48,941 nucleotides of DNA from a virus (taxonomy: Duplodnaviria > Heunggongvirae > Uroviricota > Caudoviricetes). A model generated the notes under the pieces. The model ran no database searches and was not told the DNA's origin. It saw only the letters and a program-made list of their open reading frames with translations. Location: the IMG/VR virus record IMGVR_UViG_2802429253_000004; one strand, 5' to 3'. A program made the position numbers and the translations under genes. This document shows positions 5,425 to 19,966 of this stretch, piece by piece; position 1 is the first letter of the stretch, and every line of letters begins with the position of its first letter.

Positions 5425-6060
5425 ATGGGGATGCTGGTGGCGTTTATTATTAGCCTGATTTTGTGTTTCTTCGTAGTTCGTGGCGCATATCGGAAACAAT
5501 GTGCCTCGTCTTCTGGTAGTAAGTTCAAGGTTGTTTTAGTGAGTGGCTTTCTCGGGATTGCTACTTTTGTAGTTGTTAATACTTTTGCGGCTGTGACCTT
5601 GATCCCCGAAGACTCCAGCGCTACGGCTACTACCGGAGCTGCTTTTGATGGTGTGACCGTAGATAAGTTTAAGCAGTTATATAATGATGACCTTGAAGGC
5701 ATCGCTACATCAGGAAAAGCCACCTCCACTATAAGAATTAAGTCTGTTAAACAAGGTAACAACACCGTTGAATTTGCCATCAACTCATCTGTTAACGGTC
5801 GAGCTAGAGTTGATAAGGATGGGAAGATTTCAGAGTTATTATGGCGAGTATCTAAGCCTAGCTCTGATTCCTTGCTTTCTATGGCCGTAGCTGTTGAAGT
5901 CTTGGATGCATCAAGTGATAGAGACACAGTGATCGCGCAGTTAGAGCAGATTGTTAAATCTGATACGCAGAAAGCTGAGTTTAAGACTAAGAGAGGCGAG
6001 TATTACGTTTCTCGTGACAAATCAGGGCACGTGTCGCTATTGATTACACCGAAATATTAA
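5425..6060 (+). CDS. Membrane protein with two N-terminal transmembrane helices, function unknown
   Basis: 211 aa; hydrophobic segments LVAFIISLILCFFVV and VVLVSGFLGIATFVVV; AAGGAG ribosome-binding site; stand-alone gene bounded by terminators. Confidence 0.6.
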   Translation: MGMLVAFIISLILCFFVVRGAYRKQCASSSGSKFKVVLVSGFLGIATFVVVNTFAAVTLIPEDSSATATTGAAFDGVTVDKFKQLYNDDLEGIATSGKATSTIRIKSVKQGNNTVEFAINSSVNGRARVDKDGKISELLWRVSKPSSDSLLSMAVAVEVLDASSDRDTVIAQLEQIVKSDTQKAEFKTKRGEYYVSRDKSGHVSLLITPKY

Positions 6061-6070
6061 GAATTGAAGA

Positions 6071-6096
6071 AGCGCCCAAATCGGGCGCTTTGTTTT
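6071..6096. terminator. Bidirectional intrinsic terminator between convergent genes
   Basis: Stem AGCGCCC/GGGCGCT with a T-rich tail on the plus strand and a U-rich tail on the minus strand. Confidence 0.65.
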
Positions 6097-7237
6097 ATGG
6101 TTTTGCACCTGCGGCCAGTTTATCCGCAGATATTTTTATCAGTTCCTGTAGTGTCCTGGCTGGCAGGTTTGCATCCAGAACGCTGAGTATGCTGTTGTGA
6201 TCAGCCTGGTCGACTACTTTGCCTGTCGGTGGTAGTAGCTTGAGCTGAGGATTCAGGTTTTCGTCAAAGCTGATAAGTGCTCTGGCGTTTCTGAGCAGAT
6301 CAAGAAGTAAGGCTGATATCACATCATCTTTAGTCATTGTTGGTAGATTTAGTGCCGCTTTAGTTTTCTCCGTCGCCTTGTCAAACTCTTTGATTAGTGT
6401 CTTGCGGTAGTTTGGTTCTGTTAATAGCCGATGATGTTCTGTTGCCGTTCGGATAATCTTTGTTTCCTGATACAGTCGGTTGTATAGCATTCGCTCGTAT
6501 TCTGCCTTTAACACGCTGCTGATAGCGTTAAAGGCTTCAATGTAGGCCAGCTTGATATCCTTCACGCCTGGACCGTCGATACTTTCCATGAGCAAGGTAA
6601 ATCCGTCTTTTGTCATGCGATAGATTGTTATTTCGCGGTCGCTTCCTTCCAGCGGTCGTTGCTCTTTAAAGAAATGACGCGCCGCAGCCGTGCGAGGAAT
6701 GCGTAATGCATCGATGGCCATTACGATGGAATTGTTTGTGGTGCTGAATGCTTGGGCAACATCGGCTGAGGTTGTGAGTGGCTCGTTGTTGCACACCTTA
6801 ATGTAATACATCGGTTTGGCATTGAGTGTATCGACAACCTCACGAGCATTGTTTGGCGAGACGGTTACGGTCGCGGCCGTTTGCGCGTTCTGGTTGAAGT
6901 AGCAGTCTTCCAGCCGTTCGAATACATCCCACGCCTGATCGGTTTCGAGCATTTTAGCGTGACGTGCAGCCCCGCGTTCGGTCCAGAGGATGAGTTTTCT
7001 AACGTTATTCGCGATGGTTTGAAAATCTCTTAAAGAGATTTTCAAACTTTGGAGATCTGTACCTTTTACAACTATGAAATGTTTTCCTTCTGTAAACCGG
7101 GACTTATTACGGTGGTGATTTCTGTGAAGACATTCGACGCTACAGCCATATAGTTTGGCAAGCAGCTCCGTGGTGATAACGGGGAGCTGGTTATGCAGGA
7201 TAGGCTGTAGGGTGTTAACGGTCGGAAGCGTTTTCAT
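6095..7237 (-). CDS. Antirepressor-like regulator with ORF6N-type N-terminal domain and Rha domain
   Basis: 380 aa; N-terminal segment ending LWTERGAARHAKMLETDQAWDVFERL, central Rha-like segment ITIYRMTKDGFTLLMESIDGPGVKDIKLAYIEAFNAI. Confidence 0.7.
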   Translation of the reverse strand: MKTLPTVNTLQPILHNQLPVITTELLAKLYGCSVECLHRNHHRNKSRFTEGKHFIVVKGTDLQSLKISLRDFQTIANNVRKLILWTERGAARHAKMLETDQAWDVFERLEDCYFNQNAQTAATVTVSPNNAREVVDTLNAKPMYYIKVCNNEPLTTSADVAQAFSTTNNSIVMAIDALRIPRTAAARHFFKEQRPLEGSDREITIYRMTKDGFTLLMESIDGPGVKDIKLAYIEAFNAISSVLKAEYERMLYNRLYQETKIIRTATEHHRLLTEPNYRKTLIKEFDKATEKTKAALNLPTMTKDDVISALLLDLLRNARALISFDENLNPQLKLLPPTGKVVDQADHNSILSVLDANLPARTLQELIKISADKLAAGAKP

Positions 7238-7425
7238 TTTGCACCTCCCATAACTACTTTGGTTACGAGGGAGATTTTTGCGTCAGAAACAGCGTTATCG
7301 TTGCTGGCGATGCGCATAGCTTCGCGCTCGATGATTTCAGCCAGGCGGAATTTATCGGCGTATGAGGCTTTCTTGAGAAGGATCTTTACGAGGTTGACGT
7401 AATAGTCATGGGGTAGGTTTGTCAT
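7234..7425 (-). CDS. Small protein translationally coupled to the antirepressor gene (positionally Icd-like)
   Basis: 63 aa; its stop overlaps the ant start (ATGA); ribosome-binding site AAGGGA on the minus strand. Confidence 0.45.
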   Translation of the reverse strand: MTNLPHDYYVNLVKILLKKASYADKFRLAEIIEREAMRIASNDNAVSDAKISLVTKVVMGGAK

Positions 7426-7587
7426 TGTGATGATTCCCTTAAAGGTTAAGGATACTCACCACCGTCAGGTTCCAATCATTGGGTGGTGAGACGTGCAGGG
7501 TTGGAACTACCGGACACAATGACGAACCGGCGAGTCTTACGACTCCCCCGCACGCCCCACCATAATTTGGGTGTAGCAGTGCTTTAC

Positions 7588-7612
7588 GCATAAAAAAACC
7601 GCTAACGCGGTA
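7588..7612 (-). terminator. Intrinsic terminator on the minus strand within the leader of the antirepressor operon (3' end of a candidate small RNA or attenuator)
   Basis: Minus-strand hairpin ACCGCG..GCGGT followed by TTTTTTT; mutually exclusive pairing segments upstream (TCTACGG / CCGTAGA / CTACGG at 7626..7663). Confidence 0.4.
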
Positions 7613-7875
7613 TGCGCCATTGTGTCTACGGGGTTCCAATCCCGACCGTAGATTTTGCTACGGCTCGGAAAGTGTCCACCAATGGCGCATTCATGTCAAT
7701 ACGGCGGGATTTTAACAGAGGCAACCACATAGCGTGGGTTTGAATGCAGGGCTTTTAATTTTCTTGATATGCTAAGAACGGGAATGTATAGTTCCTGTAA
7801 GGAACAAATCAGTCCTAAATTGTGATGTTTTGTTAAAGTTGGGAACAAGAAAAAAATTTATTATGGGGATAAAAA

Positions 7876-8415
7876 ATGATTGAACCGTCAAAAAACTCAT
7901 GTTTTTCAACCATTCACCTAATGATCATAAAAGAACTTAGGCTAGAAAGAGGTGTGCATCAAGGGATGCTAGCTCAAGCTGCTGGTAAAACACCGAACGC
8001 ATGGACAAAGATAGAGAACGGGCAGTCTGTATTAACAGTTGACGCACTTTTTGGTGCTTTCACAGCCCTTAATATTACTCCAGTGAATTTCATGTCATTG
8101 GTAGAAAATCTTATTTCCGAATTTAACCGTTATGGTTACCACTTCCATCCAGGAACCATTCCTCTGGAAGAAGATAGTCTTTTGCCTCTGATGCTGCGTT
8201 ACTTTAATAGCAAGGGGTTTGAAGCATTGAGAAATAGGCCATTCGAAAGAATTAGCATAAGCTCAATGGGGTTCTCATTTGGGGGGGGCATCCCTGTTAC
8301 TCCAACTGCTGTAATGTATTGTTGCGATGAAGCATATAGAAATTGGGTCGATAACGGCGCTGATATGGATAATCGAGATTATCTGAAGCCATTAACAGGT
8401 CTTGGACGGTTTTAA
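7876..8415 (+). CDS. XRE-type HTH protein with an uncharacterised C-terminal domain
   Basis: 179 aa; HTH near residues 20-60 (GMLAQAAGKTPNAWTKIENGQS); transcribed divergently from the antirepressor operon. Confidence 0.55.
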   Translation: MIEPSKNSCFSTIHLMIIKELRLERGVHQGMLAQAAGKTPNAWTKIENGQSVLTVDALFGAFTALNITPVNFMSLVENLISEFNRYGYHFHPGTIPLEEDSLLPLMLRYFNSKGFEALRNRPFERISISSMGFSFGGGIPVTPTAVMYCCDEAYRNWVDNGADMDNRDYLKPLTGLGRF

Positions 8416-8834
8416 TGAGTGAAGAAACAAAAAAACCGCCCTATTGAGGACGGTTCTTTCGTGCTGATCGGATTCGCAGTCCTTTCAGCATAACGTCGTT
8501 GTATAAATACAACCACGCAAGCACAAACAGCGTTCTTATTCTTACCTAACTGAATAAAATTGTCCAAATAAATTTGGTTTATTAGAGCACAAAAGCAAGT
8601 GATATTTTGTAATATGCGGTTAAGTCAATGAAAAACAATATTTTTTTATCCCTTCATTATGAAGGGGCGGCGGCGTAACATTACGCGGGGCCTTTTCGCC
8701 GATTCGCACCCGGGCACCGACTTTCAGGAAAGGATTATCCAACCGCCGTACCACGCAGGCACAAACAGCGTGCTTGCTCTCGCGTCATTTTCGTCGGTGG
8801 AGATGCCGTGGAACGGCCTGCGAGGGCCAATACA

Positions 8835-8954
8835 ATGAGGAAATACGTATGTATTTTGATCGTTGTTACTGGAGCTTTGTTTACGCCACATGGGGAGGGT
8901 TGGAAGATTACTGATAACGCTCTGAATGTGACGATAAACATTAGCAGCAAGTAG
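8835..8954 (+). CDS. Candidate 39-aa hydrophobic peptide (MRKYVCILIVVTGALFTPHGEGWKITDNALNVTINISSK)
   Basis: GAGGG ribosome-binding site 8 nt upstream; strong intrinsic terminator immediately downstream; no homolog recognised. Confidence 0.3.
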   Translation: MRKYVCILIVVTGALFTPHGEGWKITDNALNVTINISSK

Positions 8955-8959
8955 CGATT

Positions 8960-8982
8960 AGGCCCCTTCGGGGGCCTTTTTT
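8960..8982 (+). terminator. Strong rho-independent terminator
   Basis: Stem AGGCCCC/GGGGCCT with loop TTCG, then TTTTTT. Confidence 0.8.
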
Positions 8983-19890: not shown

Positions 19891-19966
19891 GGCCCCTTAG
19901 CTCAGTGGTTAGAGCAGGCGACTCATAATCGCACGGTCACTGGTTCAAGTCCGGTAGGGGCCACCA
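19891..19966 (+). tRNA. tRNA with CAU anticodon (tRNA-Met, or tRNA-Ile2 if lysidine-modified)
   Basis: 76-nt cloverleaf: acceptor GGCCCCT/AGGGGCC, D-arm GCTC-AGTGGTTA-GAGC, anticodon loop CTCATAA, T-arm ACTGG-TTCAAGT-CCGGT, encoded CCA. Confidence 0.85.

Follow-up and report, generated by a model that had tools for sequence, protein, structure and literature searches.

The leader of the antirepressor gene in this ~49-kb E. coli phage-plasmid is, judged from sequence and predicted structure, an ordinary RNA immunity cassette of the P1 / Gifsy-1 type, composed of a C4 antisense RNA, the target sites of C4, and an upstream IsrK RNA that carries copies of those sites. In the window, by which we mean the whole stretch of 48,941 nt that was analysed, we observed membership of these elements in known RNA families, their structures, and a three-way complementarity and co-variation between C4 and its two sets of sites. 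The cassette is of the immI type, and its elements stand beyond chance by the Rfam E-values, the z-score of the C4 fold and the compensatory changes in the stems. Feature coordinates are collected in Table 1.

Table 1. Features of the immunity cassette and the antirepressor operon in the window.
Feature	Coordinates	Strand	Basis or remark
Putative cassette promoter	7671..7699	-	Read from the sequence
IsrK-type small RNA, ~73 nt	7592..7664	-	Rfam RF01394, full-length match
a1 site GAUUGGAACC	7632..7641	-	IsrK hairpin 2, loop AUUGGAAC (7640-7633)
b1 site ACACAAUGGCG	7615..7625	-	IsrK linker; complementary to C4 b' loop
Intrinsic terminator of IsrK	7592..7611	-	Terminator scan and isrK model match
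C4 antisense RNA	7479..7567	-	Rfam RF01695
b' segment CGUCAUUGUGU	7514..7524	-	C4 P3 loop; complementary to b1 and b2
a' segment GUUCCAAC	7500..7507	-	Single strand 3' of C4 P3; complementary to a1 and a2
a2-presenting hairpin	7455..7490	-	Predicted fold; stem CUCACCACC (7490-7482) / GGUGGUGAG (7463-7455)
Translation-initiation region of leader ORF	7421..7440	-	Shine-Dalgarno AAGGGA 7440-7435
Leader ORF, 63 aa	7234..7425	-	ORF list; full-length phrog_7886 match, E = 2e-47
Antirepressor ant, 380 aa	6095..7237	-	Pfam ORF6N and Phage_pRha; PHROG anti-repressor families
GC-rich hairpin just past the ant stop codon	6069..6091		Terminator scan, called on the plus strand

RNA families in the leader

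A search of the whole window against Rfam returned two full-length matches, isrK over model positions 1-77 of 77 (67.7 bits, cut-off 50, E = 1.9e-12) and C4 over model positions 1-87 of 87 (77.8 bits, cut-off 45, E = 1.2e-13), both exceeding the curated gathering scores that serve as Rfam cut-offs. By BLASTN, the leader has matches in 150 records of phages and 188 of plasmids. A first-pass annotation, made from the letters alone, had proposed riboregulation of the antirepressor “as with c4 in P1”, or sar in P22, in a form not recognisable by sequence. The proposal was right in kind, since the leader holds a real C4 homologue; its second half fails, because two families pass their cut-offs and homologous leaders are widely found, and the likeness to sar is unsupported. 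The sequence elements listed in that annotation are all present at their coordinates on the minus strand, and several of them take on a different role below.

The order isrK, ~25 nt, C4 was found in all 16 related loci examined, among them P1 (c4-a1b1 55.5 bits, C4 70.8 bits) and Gifsy-1 (isrK 79.3 bits, C4 69.0 bits). The c4-a1b1 motif (Rfam RF03163) scored 38.8 bits in the window, under its cut-off of 46.7, although with E = 3.1e-8 in a search of 701 nt, and this match overlaps both IsrK hairpins; five of the 16 relatives pass this cut-off. The layout by which the motif is defined (Weinberg 2010, Additional file 1), with two neighbouring hairpins 5' of C4, a1 in the second hairpin and b1 directly 3' of it, is present in the window.

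Promoter and IsrK-type RNA

The candidate promoter combines a perfect -35 (TTGACA, 7699-7694), a 17-nt spacer and a -10 (GACACT, 7676-7671) matching the consensus at 3 of 6 positions, with a predicted start at ~7664. It was left uncalled by the promoter consensus scan because so few positions of the -10 match. A -35 (TTGAC, TTGAT or TTTAC) lies at a constant distance from the IsrK 5' end in 17 of 17 leaders.

The predicted IsrK-type RNA consists of hairpin 1 (7664-7645, loop CAAAAU), hairpin 2 (7644-7629), a single-stranded linker, and a terminator with the stem ACCGC-GUUA-GCGGU (7611-7598) followed by U7 to 7592. Compensatory changes were found at all six predicted pairs of hairpin 1 across 15 relatives, and the terminator is kept in 16 of 16 relatives. 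The terminator scan bears out the minus-strand intrinsic terminator of the first-pass annotation, its ACCGC/GCGGT stem and U7 included, which had been taken as internal to a single leader and which we reassign as the end of a separate small RNA, IsrK. Read-through at this position has been experimentally demonstrated for Gifsy-1 only (PMC4825925).

The segments GCCGTAG (7664-7658), CTACGG (7651-7646) and CCGTAGA (7631-7625), all on the minus strand, had been proposed to pair in mutually exclusive ways, and in the isolated 73-nt RNA an alternative pairing is indeed the minimum-energy fold (-24.6 vs -22.2 kcal/mol for the family consensus fold). We reject a conserved CCGTAGA switch, since the third segment is lost in the closest relatives, with 95% leader identity: Yersinia phage vB_YpM_39 reads CCGATAA instead, and three related plasmids have lost the segment as well.

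C4 antisense RNA and its target sites

The minimum-energy fold of C4 is the family structure (-46.6 kcal/mol, z = -5.7), with a long basal stem P1, a P2 capped by a GUAA (GNRA) tetraloop, and a P3 (GCCGG/CCGGU) whose loop bears b'; a' lies in the single-stranded segment 3' of P3 and is unpaired in the predicted fold. Across 13 sequences, 14 of the 27 pairs in the C4 stems show compensatory changes. In P1, C4 is reportedly cut by RNase P at its 5' end, giving a stable RNA of ~77 nt that represses ant in trans.

Just downstream, the 9-bp stem noted in the first pass, CTCACCACC (7490-7482) with GGTGGTGAG (7463-7455), is recovered by folding, and its role can now be specified as a conserved hairpin that presents a second copy of the a site, a2 (GAUUGGAACC, 7477-7468), in its loop. 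Four of its eight pairs show compensatory changes, e.g., TTCGCCACC/GGTGGCGAG and GCTACCACC/GGTGGTAGC. By coordinates, one segment serves both as the 5' arm of this hairpin and as the 3' arm of stem P1 in C4, which makes the two structures mutually exclusive. The repeated GGTTCCAATC elements noted in the first pass correspond to a1 and a2, the targets of C4 a'. Exactly two copies of the 10-mer GATTGGAACC lie in the 48.9-kb window (7641-7632 and 7477-7468), compared with 0.12 expected by chance, and two copies were reached in 1 of 100 shuffles. The second downstream site, b2 (CACAAUGAC, 7429-7421), spans the AUG of the leader ORF (7425-7423). Three more CACAATGRC matches lie elsewhere in the window, each without an adjoining a-type site, and are taken as chance occurrences.

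The exposed a and b segments were scored for pairing with RNAduplex. When C4 was co-folded with IsrK or the 5' UTR in RNAcofold, essentially no intermolecular a/b pairing appeared, because the algorithm bars pseudoknotted loop-loop (kissing) contacts, which makes this result uninformative and not evidence against pairing. In the window, a'/a1 reaches -14.0 kcal/mol, b'/b1 forms 11 bp including one G-U pair (-15.4 kcal/mol), and b'/b2 forms 9 bp (-13.2 kcal/mol), the two b pairings also being recovered by pattern match. In every locus compared, a' is complementary to a1 and a2, and b' to b1 and b2, at conserved positions. Across 17 loci a1, a2 and a' co-vary, and b', b1 and b2 do likewise. Mean duplex energies of cognate vs non-cognate combinations were -9.3 vs -4.3 kcal/mol for a'/a1 (a non-cognate pair was as good in 8 of 246 cases), -9.3 vs -5.0 for a'/a2 (10 of 246), -11.9 vs -4.7 for b'/b1 (1 of 266), and -11.7 vs -6.2 for b'/b2 (10 of 266).

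Among leaders that are 95% identical, b', b1 and b2 are altered in concert; in Yersinia phage vB_YpM_39, for example, b2 has become CACCAUG and is matched by a change of b' to CAUGGUG. The a and b determinants also occur in different combinations: plasmid pCREC-544_3 shares b with the window and differs in a, and in another locus (L016) the b of L010 stands together with the a of Gifsy-1.

Leader ORF and antirepressor gene

The first-pass annotation had described an antirepressor with ORF6N and Rha domains overlapping a small upstream ORF, and Pfam (ORF6N, E = 1.4e-17) together with the ATGA overlap between the leader-ORF stop and the ant start corroborates this. The leader ORF is annotated as a CDS in relatives. 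It had been likened to icd of the P1 icd-ant pair, and the likeness is one of position only: the ORF does not match the Icd-like model NF033153, which both P1 Icd and the Icd of an N15-like plasmid do match, and BLASTP against P1 Icd returned nothing, so that we reject its identification as Icd.

The N-terminal 150 aa of Ant are 49% identical to Gifsy-1 AnrP (E = 8e-46). Similarity to P1 Ant1 was not found by BLASTP (best E = 0.48), and Ant was rejected as a P1 Ant homologue. The GC-rich hairpin past the ant stop codon has a poor U-tract on the minus strand and is probably the end of the operon.

Comparison with known immunity systems

The P1/P7 immI region (a1 b1 - c4 - a2 b2 - icd - ant1/2) shares with the window its element order, a C4-family RNA bearing a' and b', the duplication of targets up- and downstream, a short leader ORF that overlaps the start of the antirepressor gene, and the plasmid prophage state. 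The differences lie in the protein-coding genes, as the leader ORF is not Icd and Ant is unrelated to P1 Ant1, and in b2, which overlaps the Shine-Dalgarno sequence in P1 (ACUUACGAGG) and the AUG in the window. The upstream RNA of P1 scores 47.9 bits against isrK, just under the cut-off of 50, and has a terminator-like hairpin.

In P22, a small RNA likewise restrains antirepressor synthesis; sar is a cis-encoded antisense RNA that is made from the opposite strand and spans the ribosome-binding site of ant. By contrast, all RNAs of the cassette lie on the ant strand. An RNA of the sar type is unsupported, as Rfam gave no sar match and the scans of the leader detected neither a promoter nor a terminator on the plus strand.

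The isrK-STnc1160/‘orf45’-anrP locus of Gifsy-1 (Hershko-Shalev et al. 2016, PMC4825925) resembles the window in having an isrK with hairpin 1, an a1 hairpin, a b1 linker and a terminator, a C4-family RNA ~25 nt further downstream, an a2 hairpin next to it (stem CUCACCACC/GGUGGUGA), a predicted cis helix between a1/b1 and a'/b', and an ORF6N antirepressor under control, the N-terminal domains of which share the identity given above. It differs in that its b2 sits on the anrP Shine-Dalgarno sequence, with no separate leader ORF, whereas b2 of the window lies on the leader-ORF AUG; in its specificities (a' UACGCCAAC, b' UCGGUGAU); in its antirepressor, to which Ant of the window adds a Rha domain and a C-terminal region; and in being an integrated lambdoid prophage instead of a plasmid prophage. 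In Gifsy-1, translation of anrP rises 139-fold when IsrK is supplied in trans, and AnrP induces the prophage (PMC4825925). Placed on the locus, the compensatory mutant pairs reported there, G28A/C162U and G31A/C159U (PMC4825925), coincide with a1 and a'.

The P4 immunity region (seqA - CI RNA - seqC) has the same arrangement of a processed antisense RNA between upstream and downstream complementary sites, and the Gifsy-1 authors regarded IsrK as a structural homologue of SeqA and compared STnc1160 with CI (PMC4825925). By the same description, P4 differs in that CI brings transcription of replication genes to a premature end instead of acting on antirepressor translation.

Proposed mechanism and alternative explanations

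We consider a P1/Gifsy-1-type RNA immunity cassette, with repression by C4 and counter-action by IsrK, to be the best explanation of this locus and a likely one. One promoter (~7699-7671) would start transcription at ~7664. Some transcripts would end at 7592 and yield the ~73-nt IsrK-type RNA, whose hairpin 2 loop holds a1 and whose linker holds b1, and read-through at the IsrK terminator would yield a transcript carrying C4 (7567-7479), the leader ORF and ant. In P1, C4 is excised from the transcript by RNase P, and Rho-dependent polarity adds to the repression. In the window, a' of C4 is predicted to pair with a2 in the loop of the hairpin just downstream and b' with b2 over the leader-ORF AUG, which would block initiation on the 63-codon ORF and lower Ant synthesis through the loss of translational coupling at the ATGA overlap. 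IsrK should compete for C4, and thereby relieve repression, because it offers the same two targets with predicted pairing that is equal or better, and whether antirepressor is made and the prophage induced would then depend on the ratio of IsrK to C4. That C4 is processed, that regulation runs in this direction and that IsrK acts as a decoy are inferred from homology with the known systems. The idea that a1/b1 and a2/b2 compete for c4 dates from 1990, when it was put forward for P1, according to the summary in Weinberg 2010 (Additional file 1).

Several points weigh against this explanation, among them the weak -10 of the candidate promoter, which the consensus scan passed over. Weakening the cis pairing of a1 with a' in Gifsy-1 (G28A, G31A) raised basal anrP translation (PMC4825925), which is unexpected if IsrK acts as a decoy alone, and the upstream copy may, either instead or in addition, hold the read-through RNA in an inactive fold. 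The minimum-energy fold of the full leader in the window pairs a1/b1 with a'/b' in cis. The stoichiometry also looks unfavourable, with one C4 and two sets of targets per read-through transcript, and C4 would have to be far more stable than its targets.

A rival is the dual-function model of IsrK proposed for Gifsy-1, which we consider improbable for the window. In that model, the read-through RNA is held inactive by cis pairing of its IsrK portion with downstream sequence until short IsrK in trans opens it; orf45, a small ORF whose start lies within this downstream sequence, is then translated, and ribosomes are passed on to the antirepressor. Genetics and native gels back this model in Gifsy-1 (PMC4825925), and the minimum-energy fold of the 265-nt leader in the window contains a long-range a1/b1:a'/b' helix (-100.5 kcal/mol, z = -4.8) that joins IsrK nt 22-52 to the a'/b' region of C4, so that the downstream complementarity (~30 nt) expected of isrK is found here too. 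However, the published orf45 starts (A107, AUG119-121) fall in the 5' arm of C4 P1. The equivalent AUG in the window opens a frame of 8 codons that ends at the P2 loop, and in eight relatives the frame has 14 to 41 codons and stops before the antirepressor gene (in four others it runs into the gene). With so short a frame in the window, an orf45 equivalent cannot extend as far as the leader ORF or ant. The ORF coupled to ant is a different one, of 63 codons; it has a Shine-Dalgarno sequence and an AUG of its own, with b2 on that AUG, and we reject the orf45 model for this locus.

Transcription attenuation, with the a2 hairpin (7490-7455) as an intrinsic terminator set by formation of C4 P1 or by binding of C4 to the a2 loop, would draw on the arm that this hairpin shares with P1, on the T-run that follows it in some relatives (e.g., GGTGGTGAGTTTTTT in L009 and GGTGGTGGAAGTTTTT in L008), and on the overlapping terminators of this kind remarked on in Weinberg 2010. 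In the window, however, the stem is trailed by UAUCCUUAACC, which is not a U-tract, and the terminator scan was silent; the tail is missing in Gifsy-1 and P1 as well. Lacking a U-tract, the a2 hairpin is an unlikely terminator here, and we give attenuation little credence. As for the view of the first-pass annotation, that the leader is a new riboregulator akin to c4 or sar in function only and unassignable by sequence, the absence of RNA annotation from public records is the one point in its favour, and with two Rfam families over their gathering scores and homologous leaders in P1 and Gifsy-1 we regard it as scarcely credible.

Relation between the P1 and Gifsy-1 systems and implications

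On the homologies described above, the Gifsy-1 IsrK/‘orf45’ and P1 a1b1/c4 systems are one cassette, handled apart in the papers that mention both. From this one may tentatively, at somewhat less than an even chance, read the immunity region jointly: in every immI-type cassette, that of P1 included, C4 would have the terminated IsrK (a1 b1 and terminator) as its universal and dedicated anti-antisense partner; the target published for Gifsy-1 as ‘orf45’/STnc1160 would be C4; and the cassette would form a self-contained toggle with two exchangeable specificities. If this joint reading is true, the toggle of the phage-plasmid is set by read-through of the terminator and by relative RNA stability, and immunity specificity resides in the determinants a and b, which are independently exchangeable.

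The new biology is small, as the principle was put forward for P1 in 1990 (by the account in Weinberg 2010), the motifs were described in 2010, and Gifsy-1 was analysed in 2016 (PMC4825925). The shared homology could nevertheless simplify accounts of how Stx, Gifsy, N15-like and P1-like elements control their antirepressors, and it predicts RNA-based hetero-immunity groups among the ~49-kb phage-plasmids. The practical value lies in annotation of the cassette: the public records examined among the phage and plasmid matches carry no RNA annotation on it, and several place protein-coding features across its RNAs.

The leader encodes IsrK and C4 RNAs

Rfam scanning of the whole window placed full-length matches to isrK and C4 in the leader of the antirepressor gene (ant), both above their gathering scores, and a permissive Rfam scan for matches below the cut-off added c4-a1b1, which overlaps IsrK hairpins 1 and 2. 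The first-pass annotation had proposed riboregulation of ant in a form "not recognisable by sequence". That reading was right in kind, as the leader holds a C4 homologue, but the Rfam matches to isrK, C4 and c4-a1b1 contradict the claim that the system is unrecognisable and novel.

Features of the antirepressor module
Feature	Position	Strand	Details
Leader region	7720..7426	-	directly precedes the 63-codon leader ORF
Promoter	-35 TTGACA 7699-7694; 17-nt spacer; -10 GACACT 7676-7671	-	putative, from sequence
c4-a1b1 (RF03163)	7677..7625	-	permissive scan; 38.8 bits, below cut-off 46.7; E = 3e-8
isrK (RF01394)	7664..7592	-	Rfam, full-length; 67.7 bits, gathering cut-off 50
GCCGTAG / CTACGG / CCGTAGA	7664-7658 / 7651-7646 / 7631-7625	-	sequence
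Intrinsic terminator of IsrK	stem 7611-7598, U7 to 7592	-	terminator scan
C4 antisense RNA (RF01695)	7567..7479	-	Rfam, full-length; 77.8 bits, gathering cut-off 45
9-bp stem CTCACCACC / GGTGGTGAG	7490-7482 / 7463-7455	-	predicted folds
a' GUUCCAAC	7507-7500		with a1, -14.0 kcal/mol; with a2, -8.8 kcal/mol
b' CGUCAUUGUGU	7524-7514		with b1 ACACAAUGGCG (7625-7615), -15.4 kcal/mol; with b2 CACAAUGAC (7429-7421), -13.2 kcal/mol
Leader ORF, 63 codons	7425..7234	-	phrog_7886 match, family function unknown
ant, 380 aa	7237..6095	-	ORF6N and Phage_pRha domains; PHROG anti-repressor families

All elements listed in that annotation exist in the minus-strand leader. GCCGTAG/CTACGG forms IsrK hairpin 1, a1 and a2 correspond to the GGTTCCAATC repeats (GATTGGAACC is present twice, at 7641-7632 and 7477-7468; chance expectation 0.12), and the 9-bp stem is the hairpin presenting a2. 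The "internal terminator" is likewise present, and we re-assign it as the terminator of IsrK. The alternative fold offered by the third copy, CCGTAGA, has the lowest predicted energy when the RNA is folded by itself (-24.6 vs. -22.2 kcal/mol) but is not conserved: it is lost in phage vB_YpM_39 (CCGATAA) and three related plasmids, and this pairing is therefore treated as incidental. C4 alone is predicted to adopt the family structure (-46.6 kcal/mol, z = -5.7). The a2 hairpin and C4 stem P1 share a strand, the 5' arm of the former serving as the 3' arm of the latter, so the two helices are mutually exclusive.

The position of the putative promoter is kept in 17/17 leaders; its -10 element is weak, and the promoter scan makes no call at 7699-7671. 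The IsrK terminator and C4 are separated by a ~25-nt spacer (7568-7591, minus strand) with a AUGCGUAAnGCAC motif that is kept in comparison loci L005, L006, and L007. The motif is conserved across several otherwise divergent loci and may be a processing signal.

Antisense segments and their targets covary across related loci

Segments are named after Weinberg (2010, Additional file 1), with a1 inside the two-hairpin motif and b1 just 3' of it. The AUG of the leader ORF (7425-7423) falls within the b2 site, whereas in most relatives b2 lies on the Shine-Dalgarno sequence.

Sixteen diverse loci were fetched and scanned with Rfam; they were found with a query holding both RNAs and thus form a biased sample, in which isrK is followed after ~25 nt by C4 on the same strand in 16/16 loci. 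Scores were 55.5 for c4-a1b1, 47.9 for isrK (slightly below the cut-off), and 70.8 for C4 in P1, and 79.3 for isrK, 48.1 for c4-a1b1, and 69.0 for C4 in Gifsy-1. The same isrK-C4 adjacency appears in a published annotation table for Xylella. At every locus, a' (the 3' single strand of C4) is complementary both to a1 in the loop of IsrK hairpin 2 and to a2 in the loop of the hairpin directly after C4, and b' (the C4 P3 loop) is complementary both to b1 in the IsrK linker and to b2, where translation of the first ORF begins. The 17 loci carry 10 distinct alleles of a' and 14 of b'. On average, duplexes between cognate segments are far stronger than non-cognate ones.

Mean duplex energies (kcal/mol) over 17 loci
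Pair	Cognate	Non-cognate	Non-cognate equalling cognate
a'/a1	-9.3	-4.3	8/246
a'/a2	-9.3	-5.0	10/246
b'/b1	-11.9	-4.7	1/266
b'/b2	-11.7	-6.2	10/266

The leader of vB_YpM_39 is 95% identical to that of the window; in this phage, b' changes from CAUUGUG to CAUGGUG and b2 from CACAAUG to CACCAUG, with b1 altered together with them. Compensatory changes also occur at 14/27 pairs of the C4 stems, 6/6 pairs of IsrK hairpin 1, and 4/8 pairs of the a2 hairpin (e.g., TTCGCCACC/GGTGGCGAG and GCTACCACC/GGTGGTAGC).

phiP27 and N15-like Klebsiella/Enterobacter plasmids carry the same a allele as the window; the window's b allele was found, among the loci compared, only in near relatives. The a and b segments assort independently (comparison loci L001-L017 and L019-L021 vs. 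window 7421-7641): plasmid pCREC-544_3 (L013) has the b' of the window with a different a', and L016 carries the L010 b' together with the Gifsy-1 a'. This pattern suggests that RNA immunity specificity is exchanged in modules.

Several public protein-coding features cover these RNAs and are probably mis-annotations. CDSs named "putative antirepressor," "Sb41," or "Rha protein" reach upstream over IsrK and C4 (L009 1575-2723, L010 1581-2738, L015 1621-2772), and an "ash family protein" CDS lies on C4 in L007 (2118-2231) and across IsrK and C4 in L012 (2020-2187).

Relation to Gifsy-1 and P1

Among characterised systems, the nearest relative is the isrK-C4-anrP locus of Gifsy-1; the N-terminal domain of Ant is 49% identical to that of the Gifsy-1 antirepressor AnrP (E = 8e-46). 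P1 has the same order of elements, and the likeness to its icd-ant pair noted in the first pass is one of position only. In the window, the stop codon of the leader ORF overlaps the ant start (ATGA), but the ORF is not Icd, having no match to NF033153 (matched by Icd of P1 and of an N15-like plasmid) or, by BLASTP, to P1 Icd, and Ant is unrelated to P1 Ant1.

C4 and c4-a1b1 were described as motifs in 2010 (Weinberg, 2010), the 2016 dissection of IsrK likened it to P4 seqA/CI (Hershko-Shalev et al., 2016; PMC4825925), and a 2025 review and an APSE-phage paper give IsrK and c4 separately and unlinked. When mapped to the locus, the Gifsy-1 mutations fall at G28 and G31 in a1 and at C159 and C162 in a', the published compensatory mutants being G28A/C162U and G31A/C159U (PMC4825925). 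In the region of transcript nt 103-186 (NC_010392.1, L002, 2501-2584), which has a C4 match of 69.0 bits, both start codons given for "orf45" (A107 and AUG119-121) fall within stem P1 of C4, on its 5' arm. This mapping indicates that published helix b-I is the a1:a' pairing and that "orf45"/STnc1160 coincides with C4. On sequence grounds, IsrK/orf45 of Gifsy-1 and a1b1/c4 of P1 thus appear to be one homologous cassette.

Proposed regulation of antirepressor expression

The best-supported reading of the window cassette is the logic of the P1 immI operon. The cassette would be transcribed from the putative promoter, with terminated transcripts yielding IsrK and read-through transcripts yielding C4 and mRNA. 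Pairing of C4 with a2 and b2 would block initiation on the leader ORF, and Ant would drop in turn through ATGA translational coupling. Rho polarity adds to the loss of Ant in P1. IsrK, bearing the same targets, should compete for C4. For P1, such competition between a1/b1 and a2/b2 was put forward in 1990, according to the summary in Weinberg (2010, Additional file 1). When IsrK is provided in trans in Gifsy-1, translation of anrP increases 139-fold and the prophage is induced (PMC4825925). A pure decoy model does not predict that basal expression in Gifsy-1 rises when the cis a1:a' pairing is weakened (PMC4825925). In the minimum-energy fold of the 265-nt window leader, a1/b1 are paired with a'/b' in cis; together with the basal rise, this suggests that the upstream copy may additionally trap read-through transcripts in an inactive conformation.

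The orf45 component of the Gifsy-1 model cannot apply at the window locus, where the AUG equivalent to the orf45 start opens only an 8-codon frame. Nor is that frame conserved: it runs for 14 to 41 codons in 8 relatives, ending before the antirepressor gene, and continues into that gene in 4 others. Attenuation by the a2 hairpin, also remarked on in Weinberg (2010, Additional file 1), is plausible for relatives such as L008 and L009, in which a T-run (GGTGGTGAGTTTTTT) follows the hairpin ~30-45 nt past the C4 end and makes it terminator-like; it is not plausible for the window, whose a2 hairpin has no U-tract after it.

Host element and neighbouring features

The window is an E. coli phage-plasmid of ~49 kb. 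Its leader is 100% identical to those of plasmids NZ_CP032259.1 and NZ_LT985302.1, the latter encoding RepA, ParA, a RelE/ParE toxin system, and a contractile-tail virion module, and the module as a whole has 93% identity to its counterparts in Yersinia phages vB_YpM_39, 41, and 44. BLASTN found leader homologues in 150 phage and 188 plasmid records, including Stx phages, Gifsy-1, P1, ST64B, phiP27, and N15-like protelomerase plasmids. In NZ_CP032259.1 (L003, 4966-7578), the annotation has the Rha-family CDS stopping at 5598, with an IS21 element (istB, istA) from 5609 onwards; the antirepressor gene seems to be interrupted close to its 3' end.

Two 24-nt direct repeats (7784-7807 and 7825-7848, plus strand) and an inverted repeat with GTTCCT-N3-AGGAAC (7781-7815) overlap a plus-strand promoter-like site (7764-7792) upstream of a divergent HTH gene (7876-8415, 179 aa). 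The repeat region (7781-7848) looks like a repressor-gene operator region, ~65 bp from the cassette promoter. The window also carries a tRNA gene (19891-19963, plus strand; 65.6 bits) and a full-length match to ryfA RNA (8686-8982, plus strand; 123.9 bits, cut-off 80) with a small plus-strand ORF (8808-8954) inside it; this might be a maintenance element resembling a type I toxin-antitoxin system.
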